From: Gammaproteobacteria bacterium
GTDB lineage: Bacteria; Pseudomonadota; Gammaproteobacteria; JAJPIJ01
Assembly: GCA_022072255.1 (NCBI GenBank)
Contig: JAJVHZ010000011.1
Span: 108,927-172,926 of the forward strand
Length of the DNA stretch: 64,000 nt
Direction of reading: 5' to 3'
Below, piece by piece: positions 26,806-37,675 of the stretch (its first letter is position 1; every line of letters begins with the position of its first letter). The notes below the pieces were generated by a model. That model made no database searches and was not told where the DNA came from. It was given only the letters and a program-made list of their open reading frames with translations. Both the position numbers and the translations under genes were made by a program.

Positions 26806-28263
26806 GTGGCAAACGTGACGGCGAGCGTGCAGGAGGAACTGAAACATCCCCGTGACTTGAGGGTGACCCTCGAGGAGATCGAGGAGCTGCTGAACAAACA
26901 GGAGATGGTGAGCGAGCTGACCGCCCGCCAGGACGCCCCGCGCCATGAACTGGTGATGGACCTCCTGCTGCGGCAGCAGCACGTCGAAGTCGAACGCCGT
27001 CTGCAGCAGTCCCACCCGGCCGACATCGCCTACGTGCTCGAGGGATTGCCGCTGGAACGGCGTCGGCTGGTCTGGAGCCTCGTCCGTCCCGAGGCGCGCG
27101 GCGCCGTGCTGCTGGAACTGGCGGAGGCGGTGCGCGAGGGACTGCTCGGCGAGATGCCGAGCAGGGAGATCATCGACGCCGCCGAACACCTGGATCCCGA
27201 AGAGATCGCCGATCTCGTTCCGAGCCTGCCCAGGGATACCGTCTTCGAACTCTTCAACTCCCTCGACCGCAAGGATCGGACGGAACTGCAGGACGTGCTT
27301 TCGTTTCCCGAGGGAAGCGTCGGCGCGCTGATGGATCTCGATGTGCTGAGCGTGCGTGACGATGTCGAGATCGAGGTGGTCCTTCGTTATCTGCGCAAGC
27401 GCAAGGACCTGCCGGAGCAGATCGATCAGATCATCGTTGTCGATCGCGCCGGCGTGCTGAAGGGCGTCCTGCCGGTCAAGCGCCTGCTGATCCATGACCC
27501 GGAGGTAATGGTCGGGGACGTGATGCTCCTGGAGCCGGTCTTGTTCCGTACCGACGAGTCCGCGCGCGATGCCGTGCAGGCCTTCGAGCGTTACGACCTG
27601 CGTACCGCGCCGGTCGTGAACACCCACAACCAGGTGGTAGGCGTGCTGAGCGTAGACCAGGTGATGGACTACGTGAACGAATCGGCCCAGCGCGAACGCC
27701 TGAGCCAGGTGGGACTGAGGGAGGACGAGGACCTGTTCGGTTCGGTGTGGAAGAGCAGCCGAAACCGCTGGACCTGGCTGGTGTTGAACCTCATGACGGC
27801 CTTCATCGCCTCGCGCGTCATCGGACTGTTCGAGGGCACGATCGAGCGGCTCGTCGCGCTGGCGGCGCTCATGCCGATCGTGGCGAGCATCGCGGGCAAC
27901 TCGGGCAACCAGACCGTGGCGCTGGTGATCCGCGGGCTGGCACTGAACCAGATCAACACCGGGAATTTCTACCGGCTGTTGTTCAAGGAGATCGGCATCA
28001 GCCTCGTCAACGGTCTGGTATGGGGATTGGTCGTCGGCTTCTTCGCATACCTCTTCTACAACAACGTCTCGCTGGCCGCCGTCATGGTCGCTGCGATGAT
28101 GCTCAACCTGCTGATGGGCGCCCTGGCCGGTGTGGTTTTTCCGCTGACGCTGCACATGCTGGGACGCGACCCGGTGATGGGCAGCAGCGTCATGCTCACC
28201 GCGATCACCGACAGCATGGGATTTTTCATCTTCCTGGGGCTGGCGGCGATGTTCCTGCGCTAG
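26806..28263 (+). CDS. mgtE: Magnesium transporter MgtE
   Basis: N-domain, tandem CBS domains and a C-terminal 5-TM MgtE domain (PIVASIAGNSGNQTVALVIRGLAL...). GTG start. Confidence 0.85.
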   Translation: MANVTASVQEELKHPRDLRVTLEEIEELLNKQEMVSELTARQDAPRHELVMDLLLRQQHVEVERRLQQSHPADIAYVLEGLPLERRRLVWSLVRPEARGAVLLELAEAVREGLLGEMPSREIIDAAEHLDPEEIADLVPSLPRDTVFELFNSLDRKDRTELQDVLSFPEGSVGALMDLDVLSVRDDVEIEVVLRYLRKRKDLPEQIDQIIVVDRAGVLKGVLPVKRLLIHDPEVMVGDVMLLEPVLFRTDESARDAVQAFERYDLRTAPVVNTHNQVVGVLSVDQVMDYVNESAQRERLSQVGLREDEDLFGSVWKSSRNRWTWLVLNLMTAFIASRVIGLFEGTIERLVALAALMPIVASIAGNSGNQTVALVIRGLALNQINTGNFYRLLFKEIGISLVNGLVWGLVVGFFAYLFYNNVSLAAVMVAAMMLNLLMGALAGVVFPLTLHMLGRDPVMGSSVMLTAITDSMGFFIFLGLAAMFLR

Positions 28264-28524
28264 CCGCGGCGATTCATCGCGGGTCGGAGGATGGCCTCCG
28301 GTACGGGAGGGTGTGACAGAAATGACCTGCAATCTGCACCAGCCGGGGATGATCGCTCACTGACGTCGAATCAATCAATCGCCAGGCATGGCACGTACGT
28401 CGTCTTCCTGACTGCGCGGGCGGAGTCGGCTCGCGAAACGCGCCTGCAGCATTCGGCCGCGTCTGCCCCGGGCCCGGCTCCACGTGTATAGTGAACGCCA
28501 AAAAACGGCCGGAGCGCGCGTGCG

Positions 28525-28785
28525 ATGCAGGCGGTTGTCATCATCCTCAAGGTTCTGGCGCTGGCGCTGGCGATCGCGGGGCTGGTGGGGGGCGGGATCT
28601 GCACCCTGTGCGGTGCGGTGTGGTCGTTCGAGGACGCCGGTGTCGGCATGCAGATCGTGGGGATCTCGCTGCTGTTCGCCGTGCCGTCGTATTTCCTGAC
28701 GCGGCTGCTTTGGCGTTCGTTGAATCGGCGACCGGGCGCCGCGCCGGCGCCGAGTGAGCCTGCATCGTCGGGCGACGGCCCCTAG
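28525..28785 (+). CDS. Small membrane protein, paralog A (86 aa; signal-peptide-like N-terminus ending in GGGIC, then a second TM helix)
   Basis: MQAVVIILKVLALALAIAGLVGGGICTLCGAVWSFE...MQIVGISLLFAVPSYFLTRLLWRSLNRRPG aligns with the next ORF, sharing [KR]VL.L.L...LV.G.GIC.....F...M...I..L..L...F......R.L.R.R.G. Confidence 0.5.
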   Translation: MQAVVIILKVLALALAIAGLVGGGICTLCGAVWSFEDAGVGMQIVGISLLFAVPSYFLTRLLWRSLNRRPGAAPAPSEPASSGDGP

Positions 28786-28793
28786 GTTGGCGC

Positions 28794-29045
28794 ATGGAAA
28801 CGATCTTCACGGCGCTGTGGTGGATTATCCGGGTGCTCATCCTGCTGGGACTGTTCTGCCTGGTCGCCGGCACCGGCATCTGCGGCTACATCTACTACGA
28901 ATTCAGCGCCCAGTATCACCGCCCGGAAATGGCGGACTGGCTGTTCATCGGGGCGCTGGGGTCGCTGGCTGCGCTGTTCGGGTGGATCTTCTGGGTCGTG
29001 AAGCGAGCCTTGTTCCGGCCGCGGTCAGGCGCTGATGGCTCCTGA
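28794..29045 (+). CDS. Small membrane protein, paralog B (83 aa)
   Basis: METIFTALWWIIRVLILLGLFCLVAGTGICGYIYYEFS...MADWLFIGALGSLAALFGWIFWVVKRALFRPRSG. Lies 9 bp after paralog A, and its stop overlaps the next gene by 11 nt. Confidence 0.5.
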   Translation: METIFTALWWIIRVLILLGLFCLVAGTGICGYIYYEFSAQYHRPEMADWLFIGALGSLAALFGWIFWVVKRALFRPRSGADGS

Positions 29046-29778
29046 ATACGCGCTGGTCCTGCACGCGGCCTTCGAATGGGCCGCCATCCTCGCCGGCGCC
29101 CGGCTGTACTTTCGCGAGCGCGGGCTGCATGGCTTGCGCGCCGCCCTGCAGCCGCAGAATTACGCGGTGCTGACCGGCTGCCTGCTCGGCGCGGCGATCG
29201 GCAACAAGGCGGTGTTCTGGGTGGAGAATCCGCAGCTCTGGGACCCGGACTCCGGCGTCGCGCAGTTCTTCCTGGGCGGACAGTCGATGGTCGGCGGCCT
29301 GGTGGGCGGCTATCTCGGCGTCGAACTCGGCAAGGTGGTCGCGGCCGTGCGCCATTCCACCGGAGATCATTTCGTCTTCCCGATCCTGCTGGGGATCGCG
29401 ATCGGGCGCCTCGGATGCCTGCTCGCCGGACTTCACGATCAAACCTTCGGCGTCCAGACCAGCCTGGCCTGGGGTATCGATTTCGGCGACGGAATAAGGC
29501 GGCATCCCACCCAGCTCTACGAGATCCTGTTCGCGGGGCTGCTCTGGTGGGCGTTCCGACGCGCGCGCGCACGGCTGGCGGGCTCCCCGGGCCTGATGTT
29601 CAAGATCCTCCTTGCCGGCTACCTGTCATGGAGGCTGCTTGTCGACGCACTCAAGCCCGTCCCGTACGCCTATCCCATGGGCCTGAGCGGCATACAGATC
29701 GTGTGCGCGGTGGCGCTGGCGTTCTATCTGCCGCTGCTCATTGCGCAGTTGCTGCGGCGCGAGGCGGCGCGCGCATGA
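29035..29778 (+). CDS. Lgt-family (prolipoprotein diacylglyceryl transferase-like) polytopic membrane protein, with a divergent signature
   Basis: RRHPTQLYEILFAGLLWWAF matches the Lgt RHPSQLYE block. IAIGRLGCLLAG occupies the place of the Lgt G-R-x-G-N-F-x-N-G-E signature, with N replaced by C/L. About 7 TM segments. ATG 29035 verified. The stop overlaps the downstream radical SAM start (ATGA). Confidence 0.65.
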   Translation: MAPEYALVLHAAFEWAAILAGARLYFRERGLHGLRAALQPQNYAVLTGCLLGAAIGNKAVFWVENPQLWDPDSGVAQFFLGGQSMVGGLVGGYLGVELGKVVAAVRHSTGDHFVFPILLGIAIGRLGCLLAGLHDQTFGVQTSLAWGIDFGDGIRRHPTQLYEILFAGLLWWAFRRARARLAGSPGLMFKILLAGYLSWRLLVDALKPVPYAYPMGLSGIQIVCAVALAFYLPLLIAQLLRREAARA

Positions 29779-31208
29779 GCCGCAAGGCGAGGCCGTACCT
29801 CTTCTACGACACCACCAGCGCGGTGTGCACGACCTGTCTGCGCGTGATCGAGGCGAAGATCCTGCTCAAGGACGGGAAGGCGTACATGGAGAAGTGGTGT
29901 CCTGCCCACGGCACCGAGCGGGTGCTGGTAAGCGACGATGCCGACTACTACCGGCAGTGCCGCGAGCTGTGGATCAAGCCGCCGGAGATGCCGAATACGT
30001 TCAACACCCGCATGCAATACGGTTGTCCGTACGACTGCGGCCTGTGCCCGGACCACATGCAGCACTCCTGCCTCACGCTGCTGGAACTGACCGATCACTG
30101 CAACCTTCGCTGCCCGATCTGCTACGCAGGTTCGGGGCCGGAGCGCGCGGGCTACCGGACGCTGTCCGAGATCGTGTGCATGCTGGACGCCATCGTCGCC
30201 AACGAGGGCGAGCCGGACGTCGTGCAGCTCTCCGGCGGCGAGCCGACGCTGCATCCGGATTTCTTCGCAGTGCTCGATGCGGCCCGCGCGCGCGGAGTCC
30301 GGCACCTGATGGTGAACACCAACGGCGTGCGCCTGGCGCAGGACCGCGAGTTCTGCGCACGGCTGTCGGAATACCGGAGGGCTTTCGAGGTCTACCTGCA
30401 GTTCGACTCGCGGCGGCCGGAGGCGCTGAAGGAGATGCGCGGCGCGGATCTCACCGGCGTGCGCGAGCAGGCGCTGCAGCATCTCAACGAGTTCGACATT
30501 TCCACCACACTGGTGGTGACGCTGAAGAAGGGCGTCAACGACGAGGAGATCGGCGATATCATCGGCTACGCGCTCGGCCAGTCCTGCGTGCGCGGGGTGA
30601 CGTTGCAGCCGATACAGGACGCCGGCCGTGTGCAGGGCTACGACGCGAGAGTCCATCGGCTGACGGTGAGCGAGATTCGCCGCCGCATCGCCGAGCAGTC
30701 GGGCGTGTTCACGGCCGCGGACATCCTGCCCGTGCCCTGCAACCCGGACACACTGGCCATGGGTTATGCGCTGAAGGTCGGGGGTGAGGTCGTGGCGCTC
30801 ACACGCTACCTCGACCCTGCGGTCCTGGTCGAGGGCGGCCGCAACACGATCAGCTTCGAGCACGACGGCGAATTGAGGCGGCGCGTCTTCGACCTCTTTT
30901 CGACCAACCACTCGCCGGCCTCGCAGGCGAATTGCCTTGCCGAGCTGATGTGCTGCCTGCCCCGCGTCAGTGCGCCCGCGGAGCTGACGTATCACAACGT
31001 CTTCCGCGTCCTCATAGTGCAGTTCATGGACGCGCTGTCGCTGGACATCCGTGCCCTGAAGAAGTCATGCATCCATATCGTCCAGCCCGACGGCCGTCTC
31101 ATCCCCTTCGAGTCGTTCAATCTCCTCTACCGCGACGGCCGTGCCGGGCTGTTGCGGACGCTGCGGCATGAGGTCGTCCGCGCAACCCGGGCGCGCCGGA
31201 CCTCCTGA
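29775..31208 (+). CDS. Radical SAM enzyme with an N-terminal rubredoxin/Zn-ribbon-like Cys2...Cys-His motif and an extra CxxxCxxC motif (multi-cluster radical SAM)
   Basis: Canonical ELTDHCNLRCPICYAGSG (CX3CX2C) plus a glycine-rich SAM motif LSGGEPTLH. Upstream GCPYDCGLCPDH is a second CX3CX2C. N-terminus CTTC...WCPAHG. Further C-terminal cysteines (PVPCNPD, NCLAELMCCLP, KSCIHIV). The track 29076 start is an out-of-frame extension through the Lgt-like gene. Confidence 0.8.
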   Translation: MSRKARPYLFYDTTSAVCTTCLRVIEAKILLKDGKAYMEKWCPAHGTERVLVSDDADYYRQCRELWIKPPEMPNTFNTRMQYGCPYDCGLCPDHMQHSCLTLLELTDHCNLRCPICYAGSGPERAGYRTLSEIVCMLDAIVANEGEPDVVQLSGGEPTLHPDFFAVLDAARARGVRHLMVNTNGVRLAQDREFCARLSEYRRAFEVYLQFDSRRPEALKEMRGADLTGVREQALQHLNEFDISTTLVVTLKKGVNDEEIGDIIGYALGQSCVRGVTLQPIQDAGRVQGYDARVHRLTVSEIRRRIAEQSGVFTAADILPVPCNPDTLAMGYALKVGGEVVALTRYLDPAVLVEGGRNTISFEHDGELRRRVFDLFSTNHSPASQANCLAELMCCLPRVSAPAELTYHNVFRVLIVQFMDALSLDIRALKKSCIHIVQPDGRLIPFESFNLLYRDGRAGLLRTLRHEVVRATRARRTS

Positions 31209-31307
31209 GGAAACGGCGGCGGTCGACGGCGACCGGATCCCGCGGTAACACAGGGGCGCGGCGGCGCGTTAGGGGCGTGGCCGTGCATTCCGTAGAATGC
31301 GGCAGTC

Positions 31308-33515
31308 GTGCAGAACAACCCGGCCCACCGCTTCTTCGCCACCGCGCCCAAGGGGGTTACCAGCCTGCTCGCGGATGAATTGCGCGCGCTCGGCGCCGGG
31401 CACATTCGCGAGGTGACTGCCGGGGTGCTGTTCGCCGGCACGCTGGAGGTCGGCTATCGCGCCTGCCTGTGGTCGCGCACGGCCAGCCGCGTGCTGCTGC
31501 AATTGTGCCGCTTCGCGGCGCCCGACGCCGATGCGCTCCATGCCGGGGTGCAGACTGTCGACTGGGACGGACATCTGGCCGCCGGGGGAACGTTGGCGGT
31601 CGACGCCAACGTTCGCGGTTCCCGCCTGAGGCACTCGCAGTTCGCGGCCCAGCGCGTGAAGGACGCGATTGCCGATCAACTCCGCGCCCGCCATGGCTTG
31701 CGCCCATCGGTGGATCTCGAACGGCCCGACCTGCGCATCAACGTCTTCATCGACCGCGACGTGGCGAGCCTCGCCGTCGATCTCTCCGGAGAGAGCCTGC
31801 ACCGCCGCGGTTATCGCGAGGATGCGGTCGTGGCGCCGCTGAAGCAGAATCTGGCCGCCGCGATCCTGCTGCGGGCGGGGTGGCCGGAGATCGCGCGCGG
31901 CGGCGGCGGATTCGTCGATCCCATGTGCGGCTCGGGCACCCTGATCGTCGAGGCCGCGTGGATCGCCGGCGATCGCGCGCCGGCACTGCTGCGGCGGGAT
32001 TTCGGCTTCGATCGCTGGCTGGGACACCTGCCGCGGCTGTGGCAGCGCCTGCGCGAGGAGGCCGAGGCGCGGGCCGCCGACGGGGGGCGACGGATCCCGT
32101 CGATGCGCGGTTTCGACGCCGATATGCGCGCCGTGCGCGCCGCGCGCGAGAACGTGGCGGCCGCCGGCGTCGCCGGGCATGTCCGCATCGACAGGCTCGA
32201 GCTCGCCGACCTGCCGGCACCCGAGGTCCCGACCGGCCTGCTGGCGGTCAATCCACCCTATGGCGAGCGTCTCGGGGAGAGCGAGGCGCTCGGGACGCTG
32301 TACGCGCGGCTGGGCGGAACGCTGCGCGCGCGCTACCAGGGATGGGAGGCGGCGGTCTTCACCGGCAACCCGCCGCTCGGCAGGTTCATCGGTCTGAAGG
32401 CGCGCCGGGTGCACACCTTCTACAACGGCGCCATCGAGTGCCGGCTGCTGCGATTCACCGTCGCGCCGGAGCATTTCGAGGCCTCGCGGGAAGAACGCGC
32501 CCAGGCCGGCAGCGAGCGGCCCTTGAGCGCAGGCGCGCAGATGTTCGCCAACAGGCTGCGCAAGAACATGCAGGCGCTGAAGCCGTGGGCGGAGCGGGAA
32601 GGCATCACCTGTTATCGAATCTACGATGCCGACATGCCCGAGTATGCCGCGGCCATCGACCTGTATCGGAGCACCGAGCCGTGCCTCGTCGTGCAGGAGT
32701 ATGCGCCGCCGAGAACGGTGGCCGAGGACAAGGCACGCCAGCGGCTGCGCGACATGCTGAACGCCATCCCGCCGACGCTCGGCGTGAGCCGCGGGCAGGT
32801 GTTCGTGAAGCGGCGCGAGCGTCAGCGCGGCGCGGCACAATACGAACGGCAGGCACAGACGGGGGCGTTCCACGAGGTGAGAGAGGGGCCATGCCGCCTG
32901 CTGGTGAATTTCAGCGACTATCTGGATACCGGACTATTTCTAGATCACCGGCTGACGCGCGCGATGGTGGGCGAGCTCGCACGCGGTCGCGACATGCTGA
33001 ATCTGTTCTGCTACACGGCCACCGCCAGCGTGCACGCCGCGCTGGCGGGAGCACGCTCGACCGTCTCGGTCGACATGTCCGCGACCTATCTCGACTGGGC
33101 GCGGCGGAATTTCGCGCTTAACGACATCGATCCGCGTGTCCACGCACTGGTACAGGCCGACTGCCTGTGGTGGCTGGAGCAGCAGGCCGGCGACCCTGAG
33201 GCGCCGCGATACGGCGTGATCTTTCTCGACCCCCCGACATTCTCGAACTCCAAGCGCATGCGGTCGAACTTCGATGTGCAGCGCGACCACGCGATGCTCG
33301 TGCGCCAGGCCGCGCACCTGCTCACCGGGGACGGCGTGCTGGTGTTCTCCACCAACCGGCAGCGCTTCCGCCTCGATCTCGCCGGTCTCGCGGGACTGCG
33401 GATCGAGGACGTGAGCGAGCGGACGATCCCCCGGGATTTCGCCCGCAACGCGACGGTCCATCGTTGCTGGCTGATGCGTGCGCCGGGGCGGCCACCGGAT
33501 GTCGGGCCGGGGTGA
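31308..33515 (+). CDS. rlmL: Bifunctional 23S rRNA (guanine2445-N2 / guanine2069-N7)-methyltransferase RlmKL
   Basis: 735 aa: THUMP region, first methyltransferase (DPMCGSGTLIVEAA, NPPYGERL) and C-terminal second methyltransferase (FLDPPTFSNSKRM). Confidence 0.85.
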   Translation: MQNNPAHRFFATAPKGVTSLLADELRALGAGHIREVTAGVLFAGTLEVGYRACLWSRTASRVLLQLCRFAAPDADALHAGVQTVDWDGHLAAGGTLAVDANVRGSRLRHSQFAAQRVKDAIADQLRARHGLRPSVDLERPDLRINVFIDRDVASLAVDLSGESLHRRGYREDAVVAPLKQNLAAAILLRAGWPEIARGGGGFVDPMCGSGTLIVEAAWIAGDRAPALLRRDFGFDRWLGHLPRLWQRLREEAEARAADGGRRIPSMRGFDADMRAVRAARENVAAAGVAGHVRIDRLELADLPAPEVPTGLLAVNPPYGERLGESEALGTLYARLGGTLRARYQGWEAAVFTGNPPLGRFIGLKARRVHTFYNGAIECRLLRFTVAPEHFEASREERAQAGSERPLSAGAQMFANRLRKNMQALKPWAEREGITCYRIYDADMPEYAAAIDLYRSTEPCLVVQEYAPPRTVAEDKARQRLRDMLNAIPPTLGVSRGQVFVKRRERQRGAAQYERQAQTGAFHEVREGPCRLLVNFSDYLDTGLFLDHRLTRAMVGELARGRDMLNLFCYTATASVHAALAGARSTVSVDMSATYLDWARRNFALNDIDPRVHALVQADCLWWLEQQAGDPEAPRYGVIFLDPPTFSNSKRMRSNFDVQRDHAMLVRQAAHLLTGDGVLVFSTNRQRFRLDLAGLAGLRIEDVSERTIPRDFARNATVHRCWLMRAPGRPPDVGPG

Positions 33516-33820
33516 CACGCACTGGTGGACGCGAGGCGATGCTGCGCCGGGGACGGGCGGGTGCGGGCGCGGTGATCCGACGACGCGGGCCCCGGGATCC
33601 GGTGCCCGGAACGGCCGGATCTCCGGGCGGCACCATGGCACGTTTCGTGAATCGACCAGACTGATTCTCCACCAATCGGCTGCGCGGCCGCGTCCTTGCC
33701 GGCGCCAGTTGCCGGGAGGATGGCCGAACAGTGGATGTCGCATCGAAAAATCAATAAGTTGTCTTCCGTGCCGGTCACCCCTGGGCGGTGCCCGGCAGCG
33801 CGGGAGTTTTGACGGCACCC

Positions 33821-36800
33821 ATGCGAATCAGAACGAGATTGGCAGTCGCGGCGCTCACGGCCTTCGCGGTGGCTGCCGTGCCGGGCGCATTGTTCTCGTA
33901 CCGGGTGACCCGCGAGCACGTCATCGCCGATGTCGCGCAGGAGGTCTCGGCGCACGTGACATGGCTCGCCACGCTGTTCCAATCCCGCGTGGTCACCGCC
34001 GAAAACACGCTGCCCGCGCTGCAGCGGCTGCTCGCCAGCGCGCTGGCGCAGCCGCCGCGGGCGGGGGAGCTCGAGGAATTCGACCGCCTGTTCGCGGCGG
34101 GCGACGACAGCGTCTACCGCAGTCGCCATGACGCGTTCGACGGCAAACGCGAGGCGGGCGCGTACATTCCGGGCTCCCCGCCGCTCGATGACGATCGCAA
34201 GCGCTTCTACGTGCGCGTGAAGGGAGTTCTCGACACCTTCGGCGCGCACACGAATCCGGATTTCCAGAATGTCTGGCTGCTCGATCACCATCGCGCCCTG
34301 GTGATATTCGATCGCCTGAAGCCGGACTTCGTGTTTCGGATGAGCCGCGAACAGGACTACACGCAGACGGCGTGGATGACCCTGACGGGGCCGGCCGCGA
34401 ACCCCGTGCGTACGCTGCGCTGGACTCCCGTCATTTTCGATCCCGTCCCGCGCACATGGATGGTGAGCGCGGTGTATCCGCTCGATGTCGGCGATGCCTG
34501 GCTCGGATCGGTGGGGTTCGATCTGCCGCTCGCGCAACTGACCGAGACGCTGGTGCACAGCAATCGCGAGTTCTCCGGCGTGGAGCATTTCCTGCTCGAC
34601 GAGAATGGCAGCTTCATATTGGCCGGCCCGTGGCAGTCGCAGCTCATGACGCGCGGACGGGCTCTCCCCGATCTCAGCCGCGAACCGGAACTGGACCGTC
34701 TGCTGCGCTGGCAGGCGACCCTGGACGCGGACGCCGGCCGTTCGCGCGTGGTGACGATGCGCGGCGTGCGCTACCTGGCGGTCCCCGCCACCCTCAAGAC
34801 GCTCAACTGGAAGTACGTCCGCCTCATCCCGTTGTCGGAGGTGCTCGCGCCCGTGCACCAGCTTTTCCTGCTCATCGGCAAGTCGGCCCTGCTGATCATG
34901 CTGTTGAGCGGTGTGGTCGTCGTGCTGGTCACACACGGCACGCTCGTGCAGCCGATATTGCGCCTGGCGACGGCGGCCCGCACCTACGGCAGCGGCGACA
35001 CGCGCATCCGCTTGGGCAAGGGTGGCGACGACGAGCTCGCGGAACTGGCCCTGAGCTTCGATGCGATGGCCGATGGACTGGAGCGCAGCCAGACCGAACT
35101 GCGCCAGCGCGAGGCGCGCTACCGCACCGTCGTGAACAGCGTGCGCGAGGTGATCTTCCAGCTGGGCGGCGAGGGACGGTGGCTGTTTCTCAGCGAGGCG
35201 TGGACCGCGCTGAGCGGGTACGCCATCGAGGACACGCTGGGCCGCAGCGTATACGAGTTCGTCGCCGTCGAGGACGTCGACGGGATCCGGGAACAGATCA
35301 GGGCGCTGACGAACCACGAGATCGAGGCGTGTCGCTGTGAATTCCGGCTCCGCACCCGCTCGGGGGACAGGCTCTGGGTCGAATTCCTCGCACAAACGGC
35401 GCGTTCGAGCGACGGCGAGGCCGTCTTCACGGGCACCATGGACGACGTCAGCGAGCGTTATTACCAGCGCGAGGTCAGCGCGTTGCTGCGACGGGCCGAG
35501 GAGTTCGTCAACGAGGGCTACCGCACCGAGCAGCTGTTGCAGTACTTCTGCGAGAAGCTCGCCTGGCTGTTCGGCTTCCCGCTCGTGGTCGCCGCGCTCA
35601 ACCGGGAGCAGAAGCTCGGCATCGTCGGCCGTTCGGACTGCGAGGTGGACTTCCTGCGCACGCTGAGCGGCTCGAGACGCCAGAACGCCGAGGTCGAGCT
35701 GTACGCGCGCGCGTTCGCAGAGGACAAGCCGCTCACGCTGACCGGCGAGGACGACGAGTCCGGCGAGTGGGCCCGGTCCGCCGCGCGCGCCGGGATCGGC
35801 TCGGCGATGGTCGTCCCAATCCGCATCCACGAGCAGCTCGGCGCGCTGCTCGGATTCCACATGCGCGGCAACGCCGGGCTCGCAGCCGAGCGCGTGCAGC
35901 GCATGGAGGAGCTCTGCCGGCGCATCGGCGGCGTGCTGCGCAGGGCCGAGGATCTGCAGTGGCTGCGGTTGCAGCGCACCGCGCTGGAGTCGGTGGCGAA
36001 CGGCATCATGATCGTGGACACCGATCACGAGGTCATCTGGATCAATCCGGCAATGGAACGGCTGAGCGGCTACCGCCGCGAGGACGTGATCGGCAGGAGT
36101 ACGAGGTTGTTTTCGGCCGGCTTCAGTTCCAGCGCTCAGCCGAGCGAGCTCGCCGAAGCGCGGCGGCGGGGCGGAACGTGGTCCGGAGAGATCGTCAATC
36201 GACGCAAGGACGGCAGCCTCTATACGGTGCACGAAACGGTCACGGCGTTGACCGATGCCTCCGGGAAGATCACGCACTTCGTCGCGGTACAGGCCGATAT
36301 CACCGCGCTGAAGGACGCGGAGGCGCGGCTGCAGCACATGGCCACGCACGATGCGTTGACCGGACTGTCCAATCGTCTGCTGTTCCGCGAACGCCTGAAG
36401 GAGGCGTTCTCGCGCGCCAACCGCTCCGGCAACCAGGTAGCGGTGCTACTGCTCGACCTGGATCGCTTCAAGGCGATCAATGACACCCTCGGCCACATGC
36501 GCGCCGACGAGCTGCTGCAGGCGGTCGCCGGCCGCTTGCACGGCTGCCTGCGCGAACACGACACCGTCGCCCGGCTCGGCGGCGACGAATTCACGGTTCT
36601 GCTGCCGGAGCTGGATACCTCCGAACACGCCGCCGTGGTGGCCGGCAAGATCCTCTCCTCGCTGAGCGAGCCGTTCGATATCGCCGGGCAGCCCGTGACT
36701 ACGACGACCAGCATCGGGATCAGCATCTACCCGCACGACGGCATCGACATCGACGACATACTGCAGCGCGCGGACGCCGCGATGTACCAGTCCAAGGCGA

Positions 36801-37675
36801 TGGGCCGGAACACTTACCAGTTCTACACGCGCGCGATACACGAACGCAGCATGCAGCGCCTGAGCATCGAGAAGGAGTTGCGCCGAGCGGTCGAACACAA
36901 CGAGTTCGTGCTGCATTTCCAGCCGATTGCCGATACCCGCAGCGGCACCATCGTCGGCGCCGAGGCGCTGGTCCGCTGGCGGCATCCCGTGCGGGGAGTG
37001 CTGCCGCCGACGGCGTTCATCGAGGTGGCCGAGGATTCCGGCCTCATACTGGCGATCGGAGACTGGGTGCTGCGTGCCGCGTGCGAGCAGGGCGCGGCGT
37101 GGGAGGCGCAGGGCATCCGGGACATGGAGGTGTCGGTGAATCTTTCGACGCGGCAGTTCCGCCAGTCCGACCTGGTGGAGCGGGTCGCGCACGCGTGCGC
37201 GCATGCGGGATTCAGCTCGCGCAGCATGCACATCGAGCTGACCGAGAGCCTGATGATGGACGACATGGAACAGGGCATAAGGACCATGAAGGCGTTGAAG
37301 GAGCTCGGCGTCAGCATCTCCATCGACGACTTCGGCGTCGGCTACTCGAGCCTTGCCTACCTGAAGCGATTCCCGCTGGACTCGCTGAAGATCGATCGCT
37401 CCTTCATCGAGACGGTGCCGCAGAATTCCGAGGCGACCGCGATCGCCAGCACGATACTGGCGATGGCCCGCACCCTCGGTCTGAGTGTCGTTGCCGAGGG
37501 CGTCGAGAACGAGGCGCAGCTCGAATTCCTGCGCGCGCTGGGCTGTCCGCGTTATCAGGGCTTTCTGCTCGGCAAACCGATGTCCGCCGAGGAACTTGGC
37601 GCATTCATCCGCCGCGGCCGTGCGCGCCAGGCGGAGCTACTCTCGCCGGTCGCGGCGATCCGCCCCGCCATCTAG
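33821..37675 (+). CDS. Large membrane sensor: periplasmic domain-TM-HAMP-PAS-GAF-PAS-GGDEF-EAL
   Basis: Signal/TM MRIRTRLAVAALTAFAVAAVPG, then a ~330-aa periplasmic region and TM LLIMLLSGVVVVLV. GGDEF RLGGDEFTVLL. EAL EALVRW...DDFGVGYSSL. The 33788 track start adds 11 codons. Confidence 0.8.
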   Translation: MRIRTRLAVAALTAFAVAAVPGALFSYRVTREHVIADVAQEVSAHVTWLATLFQSRVVTAENTLPALQRLLASALAQPPRAGELEEFDRLFAAGDDSVYRSRHDAFDGKREAGAYIPGSPPLDDDRKRFYVRVKGVLDTFGAHTNPDFQNVWLLDHHRALVIFDRLKPDFVFRMSREQDYTQTAWMTLTGPAANPVRTLRWTPVIFDPVPRTWMVSAVYPLDVGDAWLGSVGFDLPLAQLTETLVHSNREFSGVEHFLLDENGSFILAGPWQSQLMTRGRALPDLSREPELDRLLRWQATLDADAGRSRVVTMRGVRYLAVPATLKTLNWKYVRLIPLSEVLAPVHQLFLLIGKSALLIMLLSGVVVVLVTHGTLVQPILRLATAARTYGSGDTRIRLGKGGDDELAELALSFDAMADGLERSQTELRQREARYRTVVNSVREVIFQLGGEGRWLFLSEAWTALSGYAIEDTLGRSVYEFVAVEDVDGIREQIRALTNHEIEACRCEFRLRTRSGDRLWVEFLAQTARSSDGEAVFTGTMDDVSERYYQREVSALLRRAEEFVNEGYRTEQLLQYFCEKLAWLFGFPLVVAALNREQKLGIVGRSDCEVDFLRTLSGSRRQNAEVELYARAFAEDKPLTLTGEDDESGEWARSAARAGIGSAMVVPIRIHEQLGALLGFHMRGNAGLAAERVQRMEELCRRIGGVLRRAEDLQWLRLQRTALESVANGIMIVDTDHEVIWINPAMERLSGYRREDVIGRSTRLFSAGFSSSAQPSELAEARRRGGTWSGEIVNRRKDGSLYTVHETVTALTDASGKITHFVAVQADITALKDAEARLQHMATHDALTGLSNRLLFRERLKEAFSRANRSGNQVAVLLLDLDRFKAINDTLGHMRADELLQAVAGRLHGCLREHDTVARLGGDEFTVLLPELDTSEHAAVVAGKILSSLSEPFDIAGQPVTTTTSIGISIYPHDGIDIDDILQRADAAMYQSKAMGRNTYQFYTRAIHERSMQRLSIEKELRRAVEHNEFVLHFQPIADTRSGTIVGAEALVRWRHPVRGVLPPTAFIEVAEDSGLILAIGDWVLRAACEQGAAWEAQGIRDMEVSVNLSTRQFRQSDLVERVAHACAHAGFSSRSMHIELTESLMMDDMEQGIRTMKALKELGVSISIDDFGVGYSSLAYLKRFPLDSLKIDRSFIETVPQNSEATAIASTILAMARTLGLSVVAEGVENEAQLEFLRALGCPRYQGFLLGKPMSAEELGAFIRRGRARQAELLSPVAAIRPAI

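Follow-up and report, generated by a model that had tools for sequence, protein, structure and literature searches.

A Tes-superfamily radical SAM protein with an altered C-terminal site is encoded beside an Lgt-like membrane protein and small cysteine proteins in a gammaproteobacterium

A 64,000-nucleotide stretch of DNA from a Gammaproteobacteria bacterium (contig JAJVHZ010000011.1 of GenBank assembly GCA_022072255.1, positions 108,927 to 172,926; hereafter the window, meaning the whole stretch that was analysed) encodes a radical SAM (SAM, S-adenosylmethionine) protein whose cysteine motifs recall those of Tes, the archaeal tetraether synthase also called GDGT-MAS. The locus raises the question of whether this bacterial protein couples lipid tails as Tes does or serves a different pathway. 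We found that it is a clear homologue of Tes with the same fold, that the inferred ligands of the Tes C-terminal cluster are replaced throughout its family, and that its gene is linked to a gene for a paralogue of prolipoprotein diacylglyceryl transferase (Lgt) and, in Proteobacteria, to genes for small membrane proteins with a nearly invariant cysteine. We tentatively favour the reading that this three-gene cassette, comprising the small cysteine proteins, the Lgt-fold transferase paralogue and the Tes-superfamily enzyme, is a lipid or lipoprotein tailoring system, a view that we hold with somewhat less than firm conviction.

The relationship of the radical SAM protein to Tes was assessed by sequence and by structure. 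In a phmmer search of all PDB chains, GDGT-MAS (7TOL) was matched with an E value of 4e-63 over residues 14-322 and 365-454, whereas the next-best matches had E values of ~1e-5. An AlphaFold2 model built from 60 sequences (predicted local distance difference test (pLDDT) 84.4; predicted template modelling score (pTM) 0.85) was compared with known structures by Foldseek. GDGT-MAS (7TOM) was the top match over the full length (E 1e-39, TM 0.80/0.77), whereas SkfB, SuiB, viperin and MoaA gave TM values of 0.34-0.39, with SkfB and SuiB at ~0.35 and the runner-up at ~0.38. The resemblance to GDGT-MAS/Tes that a sequence-only reading of this DNA had proposed was thus right for both homology and fold. 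The two proteins share the four-domain fold, and neither has a SPASM domain. However, they are only ~30% identical, a 21-residue insertion after PVPS in Tes is missing from the window family, and the window family is bacterial and its gene is linked to the Lgt-like gene.

The metal sites of the N-terminal part are retained. The structure of GDGT-MAS contains four metal sites, namely a rubredoxin-like site (C9X2C12X20C33X2H36), an N-terminal cluster held by C73/C77/C80 and a histidine, the radical SAM cluster and a C-terminal cluster (PMC9433317). The first three have counterparts in the window protein (Table 1), in agreement with the sequence-only reading, which had described a rubredoxin-like N-terminus and two CX3CX2C motifs about 25 residues apart; the spacing is indeed 25. 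The N-terminal ligand residues were invariant in all 81 genome-derived orthologues and essentially invariant across an alignment of 121 window-family members and 119 archaeal Tes sequences, a pattern far beyond chance. Contacts to 5'-deoxyadenosine were also kept, F/Y117, R222, Q278 and R285 corresponding to Tes F106, R210, Q268 and R275, and Tes S271, which belongs to the same SAM/5'-deoxyadenosine contact set, corresponds to Q281 in the window protein. A Pfam scan gave matches only to Zn_ribbon_HMPTM (8e-17) and Radical_SAM (1e-23) and detected no SPASM or twitch domain, in line with the earlier remark that no SPASM-type motif is evident; SPASM-family NCBIfam models covered only the radical SAM core, at 30-50 bits. 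The name of the zinc-ribbon family stems from an old annotation of MJ0619, so this match also points to the Tes family, since MJ0619 has been established biochemically and structurally as GDGT-MAS (PMC9433317). The remaining cysteines lie at positions 99, 271, 322, 387, 393, 394 and 432, and the last five of these account for the additional C-terminal cysteines seen earlier.

The C-terminal site is different. In GDGT-MAS, the C-terminal cluster is held by three cysteines and the labile Met439 beside the strictly conserved Tyr459, and the first substrate radical is kept on it in the form of a C-S adduct (PMC9433317). Because that report gives the ligand cysteines no residue numbers, the assignment was made from invariance. 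C338, M439, C455, C470 and Y459 were invariant in 119/119 archaeal Tes sequences, and C338, C455 and C470 were the only invariant C-terminal cysteines among them; we therefore infer that these three cysteines and M439 are the ligands of the [Fe4S4]C cluster. All five residues were replaced in 121/121 members of the window family, in which the equivalents T326, V415, S431, E446 and I/M/F435 (I435 in the window protein) were fixed in 120-121/121. A different set of cysteines, C99, C271, C322, C393, C394 and C432, was invariant in the family (121/121), and most of these were also present in 81/81 genome-derived orthologues. C322 lies four residues ahead of the lost C338 position and C432 adjoins the lost C455 position, so a relocated third cluster on the new cysteine set is conceivable from the alignment. 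The sequence-only reading had considered the cysteine inventory compatible with three [4Fe-4S] clusters plus a rubredoxin-like iron. This stands for the rubredoxin-like, N-terminal and radical SAM sites, which match Tes in spacing and ligands, but the part concerning the third cluster does not stand in its original form.

Profile scores place the protein outside the curated families. The Tes equivalog model NF045702 gave 268.4 bits against a cut-off of 450, with the best stretch confined to profile positions 2-313 of 486, and the best NCBIfam model was TrsS (NF045646), which matched over nearly the full length with 314.1 bits but did not reach its cut-off of 490. MJ0619 scored 744 bits on the Tes model and, at 420 bits, outscored the window protein on the TrsS model as well. 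Judged by these scores and by the replaced C-terminal residues, the window protein is not an orthologue of Tes, and because both scores lie below their cut-offs, its family is a third lineage without a curated model. TrsS is a radical SAM (seleno)protein of this superfamily. A true member (P0345; 502 bits, above the cut-off) also has C99, C322, C393/C394 and C432 as extra cysteines, but it keeps the Tes-type C/M/C/C ligands that the window protein does not have. In the literature searched, no function was found for TrsS, which was named only in a selenoprotein table.

To place these proteins in the wider superfamily, 1.84 billion cluster representatives were searched exhaustively with HMMER, and 666 clusters were retained at E<=1e-30. 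Among 88 full-length representatives, most bacterial members had the Tes-type triad together with C99, C322 and C432, often with the CC pair, and the fourth-ligand position was occupied by M, H or K. A rough neighbor-joining tree grouped the sequences by this fourth ligand, with the window clade among the lineages that lack the triad. Some members (P0342, P0377, P0343 and P0349) were fused to a MobA-like nucleoside triphosphate transferase, a class I methyltransferase or DUF5714, and in P0342 only, an HD domain stood beside the MobA-like domain. Fusions to such unrelated domains suggest that the Tes superfamily comprises several unrelated functions.

The gene context was analysed in 80 genome loci, the best 80 among at least 585 loci encoding relatives (585 of the 600 pattern matches listed; one genome per species), which came from Beta- and Gammaproteobacteria, Myxococcota, Acidobacteriota, Gemmatimonadota, Elusimicrobiota and Omnitrophota. 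In 72 of them, an Lgt-like gene lay directly upstream on the same strand (Beta/Gammaproteobacteria, Acidobacteriota, Gemmatimonadota, Elusimicrobiota and Omnitrophota). Among the remaining loci, four end at contig ends, and three from Myxococcota have a weaker Lgt-like match upstream on the opposite strand. In the window, the stop codon of the Lgt-like gene overlaps the start of the radical SAM gene (ATGA), and the same kind of start/stop overlap was found in Methylococcus. Furthermore, two proteins carry both domains in a single chain, one in the window clade (P0243) and one in a clade that keeps the Tes triad (P0383). The conserved adjacency and the presence of fusions in two different clades indicate that the linkage is old and functional. 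The lipid-handling partner named in the sequence-only reading is thus real, conserved and sometimes fused to the enzyme.

The partner has the Lgt fold and keeps G124-R125-L-G-C128, R156-H157-P158 and Y196...R200, although its score on the Lgt model TIGR00544 was 29.3 bits, below the cut-off of 118.9. Compared with Lgt (PDB 5AZB and 5AZC), R125, R200 and Y196 correspond to R143, R239 and Y235. By contrast, H103 is replaced by V86 and N146 by C128, an invariant cysteine of the family, and the partner has 247 residues against 291 and adjoins, or is fused to, a radical SAM enzyme. From earlier mutagenesis we take R143, R239 and Y235 to be catalytic in E. coli Lgt, and roles for H103 and N146 are assumed on the same basis.

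Upstream of the Lgt-like gene, the window contains two tandem open reading frames (ORFs) for small two-helix proteins, the second of which overlaps the Lgt-like start by 11 nt and is 84% identical to its counterpart in the closest relative (L001). The GC content at third codon positions was 0.86 for both copies and 0.64 for flanking intergenic DNA, and they were therefore judged to be coding. No Pfam or NCBIfam match was found for these proteins. A hidden Markov model (HMM) trained on 20 ORFs was then run on 13,373 six-frame stop-to-stop segments from the loci and the window. A total of 76 domain matches resulted, all on the strand of the cassette, in 55 of the 80 loci. The ORFs encode ~65-100 residues with two hydrophobic helices and occur in one to three copies per locus. 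Nearly all matches end 0-100 nt before the Lgt-like start or form tandem arrays of two or three; in three cases the match is located after the Lgt-like gene and before the radical SAM gene. Methylococcus sp. ANG (L084, CP160399) has the same three overlapping genes.

These small proteins form a family with the signature [RK]-x12-G-[FG]-G-x-C-G or the one-turn-shifted G-F-G-x-x-G-L-C-G. Two positions separated by one helical turn can carry the cysteine; 75/76 copies have it at one of them or, in nine copies, at both (CxxC). The sequence is basic before helix 1, acidic or neutral in the loop and basic in the tail after helix 2. This layout resembles a signal-anchor with a lipobox-like cysteine.

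Table 1. Features of the cassette in the window.
Feature	Positions	Strand	Basis or remark
Small two-helix membrane protein, copy 1, 86 aa	28525-28785	+	HMM E 8e-18; called on the identical metagenome contig L081
Helix 1 (TM1) motif of copy 1, GGGICTLCG; C26 and C29 form CxxC	28588-28614		
Small two-helix membrane protein, copy 2, 83 aa	28794-29045	+	HMM E 5e-21; gene call on the identical metagenome contig
Helix 1 (TM1) motif of copy 2, GTGICG, with C30	28869-28886		
Lgt-fold integral membrane protein, 247 aa, prolipoprotein diacylglyceryl transferase paralogue	29035-29778	+	Pfam LGT 1.9e-16
Tes-superfamily radical SAM protein, 477 aa	29775-31208	+	ORF translation, phmmer, AlphaFold2/Foldseek
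Rubredoxin-like metal knuckle C18X2C21X20C42X2H45 (CTTC...WCPAH)	29826-29909	+	Same spacing and ligand types as GDGT-MAS C9X2C12X20C33X2H36 (PMC9433317)
N-terminal auxiliary cluster motif C84X3C88X2C91 and H94 (CPYDCGLCPDH)	30024-30056	+	Aligns with MJ0619 C73/C77/C80 and H83
Radical SAM cluster motif C109X3C113X2C116 (CNLRCPIC)	30099-30122	+	Pfam Radical_SAM 1e-23
C-terminal segment with C322 (30738-30740), C393-C394 (30951-30956) and C432 (31068-31070)	30738-31070	+	Alignments

If the cassette acts in lipid or lipoprotein tailoring, the following route can be envisaged. The radical SAM protein would dock on the Lgt-like membrane protein, to which it is fused in some species. The Lgt-like protein would supply or create the substrate, most economically by binding phosphatidylglycerol and probably S-diacylglycerylating the invariant cysteine that the small proteins hold in the membrane. 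As the radical SAM protein keeps the whole Tes fold together with the rubredoxin-like iron site, the N-terminal [4Fe-4S] cluster motif and the cluster that cleaves SAM, it would most likely generate a 5'-deoxyadenosyl radical. As in Tes, a glycerolipid acyl chain would occupy a hydrophobic tunnel, where an unactivated carbon close to its end would lose a hydrogen to this radical. The enzyme would then tailor or cross-link the lipid by forming a C-C or C-S bond at the chain end. Homology, fold, the conservation and loss of ligands, gene linkage, gene fusion and the small-protein family are observations, whereas the identity of the lipid, its acceptance by the small proteins and the type of bond are proposals. 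The lipid context is supported by a gene for an LplT-like MFS::PlsC fusion (~640 aa) that lies just upstream of the cassette in 34/80 loci, from Burkholderiales and Rhodocyclales (for example, L005:3072-5003 and L010:1372-3261). In the Aas-type acyl-ACP:phospholipid O-acyltransferase model, this lipid-recycling neighbour accounts for the N-terminal two-thirds; it was not found in this window. A more specific form, in which the Lgt paralogue places diacylglycerol on the buried helix-1 cysteine and the radical SAM enzyme, rewired from the Tes catalytic cluster to a new set of cysteines, bonds the chain ends (C-C/C-S) in a new type of protein lipidation, seems quite unlikely to us. If true, a macrocyclic or membrane-spanning lipid anchored to a protein would result, and the role of hundreds of 'Tes homologues' in aerobic Proteobacteria would be explained. 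The lipid-peptide C-S/C-C bond formation suggested in the sequence-only reading gains support from the small cysteine-bearing membrane proteins, and the bond itself remains conjectural.

The same homology could mean that the protein is a true bacterial membrane-spanning lipid synthase, which would join two acyl tails by their ends into lipids of the diabolic-acid or branched glycerol dialkyl glycerol tetraether (brGDGT) type with the Lgt-like protein as its dock or lipid presenter. Synthesis of brGDGT-type lipids has been hypothesized for the Tes homologues of bacteria, Proteobacteria among them (PMC8941075), and Tes binds ester-linked E. coli phospholipids (PMC9433317). The full-length match to the Tes fold and the possible alternative cluster-holding cysteine set in many family members also agree with this explanation. 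However, the inferred cluster ligands and Y459 are lost in the whole family, and the Tes score is below the cut-off and confined to part of the profile. In addition, Tes homologues were absent from tested producers of diabolic and iso-diabolic acids and were found in 3/14 iso-diabolic-acid Acidobacteria (PMC13159169). The only experimentally supported bacterial tail-coupling enzyme is Mss of Thermotoga and Thermoanaerobacter (PMC13159169), which is likewise of the radical SAM type and has lipid tails as its proposed substrate, but is described as no more than a remote relative of Tes. Tail-to-tail coupling, which had earlier been called plausible, is therefore weakened, and we consider it unlikely, although a genuine candidate. 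The taxonomic range adds to this doubt: Massilia, Collimonas, Roseateles, Zoogloea, Cellvibrio and Methylococcus are not known for such lipids.

The small ORFs, which lie immediately upstream in one to three tandem copies, evolve fast and encode an invariant cysteine, also a typical layout of precursor genes. Accordingly, the enzyme might be a maturase of the type that acts on ribosomally synthesized and post-translationally modified peptides, directly modifying or cross-linking the small cysteine proteins as precursors, with the Lgt-like protein adding a lipid to give a membrane lipopeptide. This is improbable in our view, since the fold is that of Tes and the maturases SkfB and SuiB are distant from it, Pfam detected no SPASM, twitch or RRE domain, and the small proteins are of a two-helix membrane type without a leader/core layout. 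Moreover, no conserved protease or exporter was present in the neighbourhood of the 80 loci, and most non-proteobacterial loci had no detectable small protein. A role in cofactor biosynthesis, as a 7,8-dihydro-6-hydroxymethylpterin dimethyltransferase or a MoaA-like cyclic pyranopterin monophosphate synthase, is highly improbable. Cofactor names do occur in the source annotations of homologues, and there is a weak similarity to MoaA, but the conserved neighbours are membrane and lipid proteins and include no cofactor genes. The dimethyltransferase name derives from MJ0619, since shown to be GDGT-MAS (PMC9433317), and the MoaA similarity amounts to 54 bits, far under the cut-off of 284; both names were rejected.

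Several observations weigh against a lipid or lipoprotein tailoring system as well. The function of bacterial Tes homologues has been stated to be unverified (bioRxiv 10.1101/2024.06.25.600576; PMC8941075; PMC13459092). Tes-type chemistry may not apply, as the inferred ligands of the C-terminal cluster are absent, and the reaction may differ from that of Tes, for example through a relocated cluster or a protein thiol; the CC pair (C393-C394) lies within model residues 354-399, where pLDDT is <50. With regard to the partner, the equivalents of H103 and N146 are changed, so its transferase activity is an assumption. There is also a topological gap: by analogy with E. coli Lgt, the active site of the partner would be turned towards the outer leaflet, whereas a radical SAM protein has to reside in the cytoplasm. 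In the fusions, the Lgt C-terminus is joined to the radical SAM N-terminus, an order consistent with a cytoplasmic radical SAM domain. In the small proteins, position -1 to the cysteine is usually taken by a bulky residue, in most cases L, I or V, at odds with a canonical lipobox. Furthermore, the HMM detected no small protein in most non-proteobacterial loci among the 80, L077 being the only one with a match, and the small proteins may therefore be accessory.

The surroundings of the cassette varied among genomes. In the window, an RlmKL methyltransferase gene (31308-33515) lies downstream, followed by a 1295-aa ORF on the + strand (33788-37675) that, judged by eye, seems to encode a sensor with GGDEF and EAL regions and is not conserved beside the cassette in other genomes. 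MgtE and RlmKL were considered as parts of the cassette and rejected, as they flank it only in the closest relative (L001), with a weak RlmL-like match downstream in L049. Between the Lgt-like and radical SAM genes, Sel1-repeat proteins are encoded in some loci (L010:4464-5276 and L025:5186-6001), and in an Azonexaceae metagenome-assembled genome, genes for an AAA_14/DUF4143 ATPase and a TIR-domain protein are inserted (L061:4110-5993), which looks like a defence-type module. In Methylococcus sp. ANG, two ORFs of 180 and 90 aa without a Pfam match follow the radical SAM gene (L084:10188-11041), with a type I-E CRISPR-Cas locus downstream. Loci of the Roseateles group have a different conserved ORF without a Pfam match after the cassette (for example, L017:7559-8233).

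Regulatory sequences were also searched. A scan of 28150-31450 gave no sigma-70-like promoter, and its terminator search gave one weak site inside the Lgt-like gene, no more than expected by chance. The operon boundaries therefore rest on overlapping and adjacent ORFs. No FNR-type box was found in the upstream region 28264-28524; over the whole window, the FNR-box pattern TTGATNNNNATCAA, with two mismatches allowed, had 18 matches compared with 8.3 expected from shuffles.

Proteobacterial Tes homologues have been noted before (PMC8941075). In the literature searched, neither the Lgt-like partner and the fusions nor the small cysteine proteins were found described, and the same held for the replacement, across the clade, of the ligands of the Tes C-terminal cluster. 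What is new here is a Tes superfamily lineage whose C-terminal site is rewired and whose gene belongs to a three-gene context. Since 2022, bacterial Tes homologues have been put forward as a source of brGDGT-type lipids, which serve as palaeoclimate proxies. This clade lacks the inferred catalytic-cluster residues and should not be used as a marker of membrane-spanning lipids in metagenome screens without experimental testing. The results reveal a large and widespread bacterial clade that is coupled genetically, and sometimes physically, to an Lgt paralogue and to which Proteobacteria add a new family of small cysteine proteins. With its three defined genes, the cassette is open to experiments in E. 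coli or in hosts that can be cultured, and it may harbour new radical chemistry on lipids or lipoproteins.

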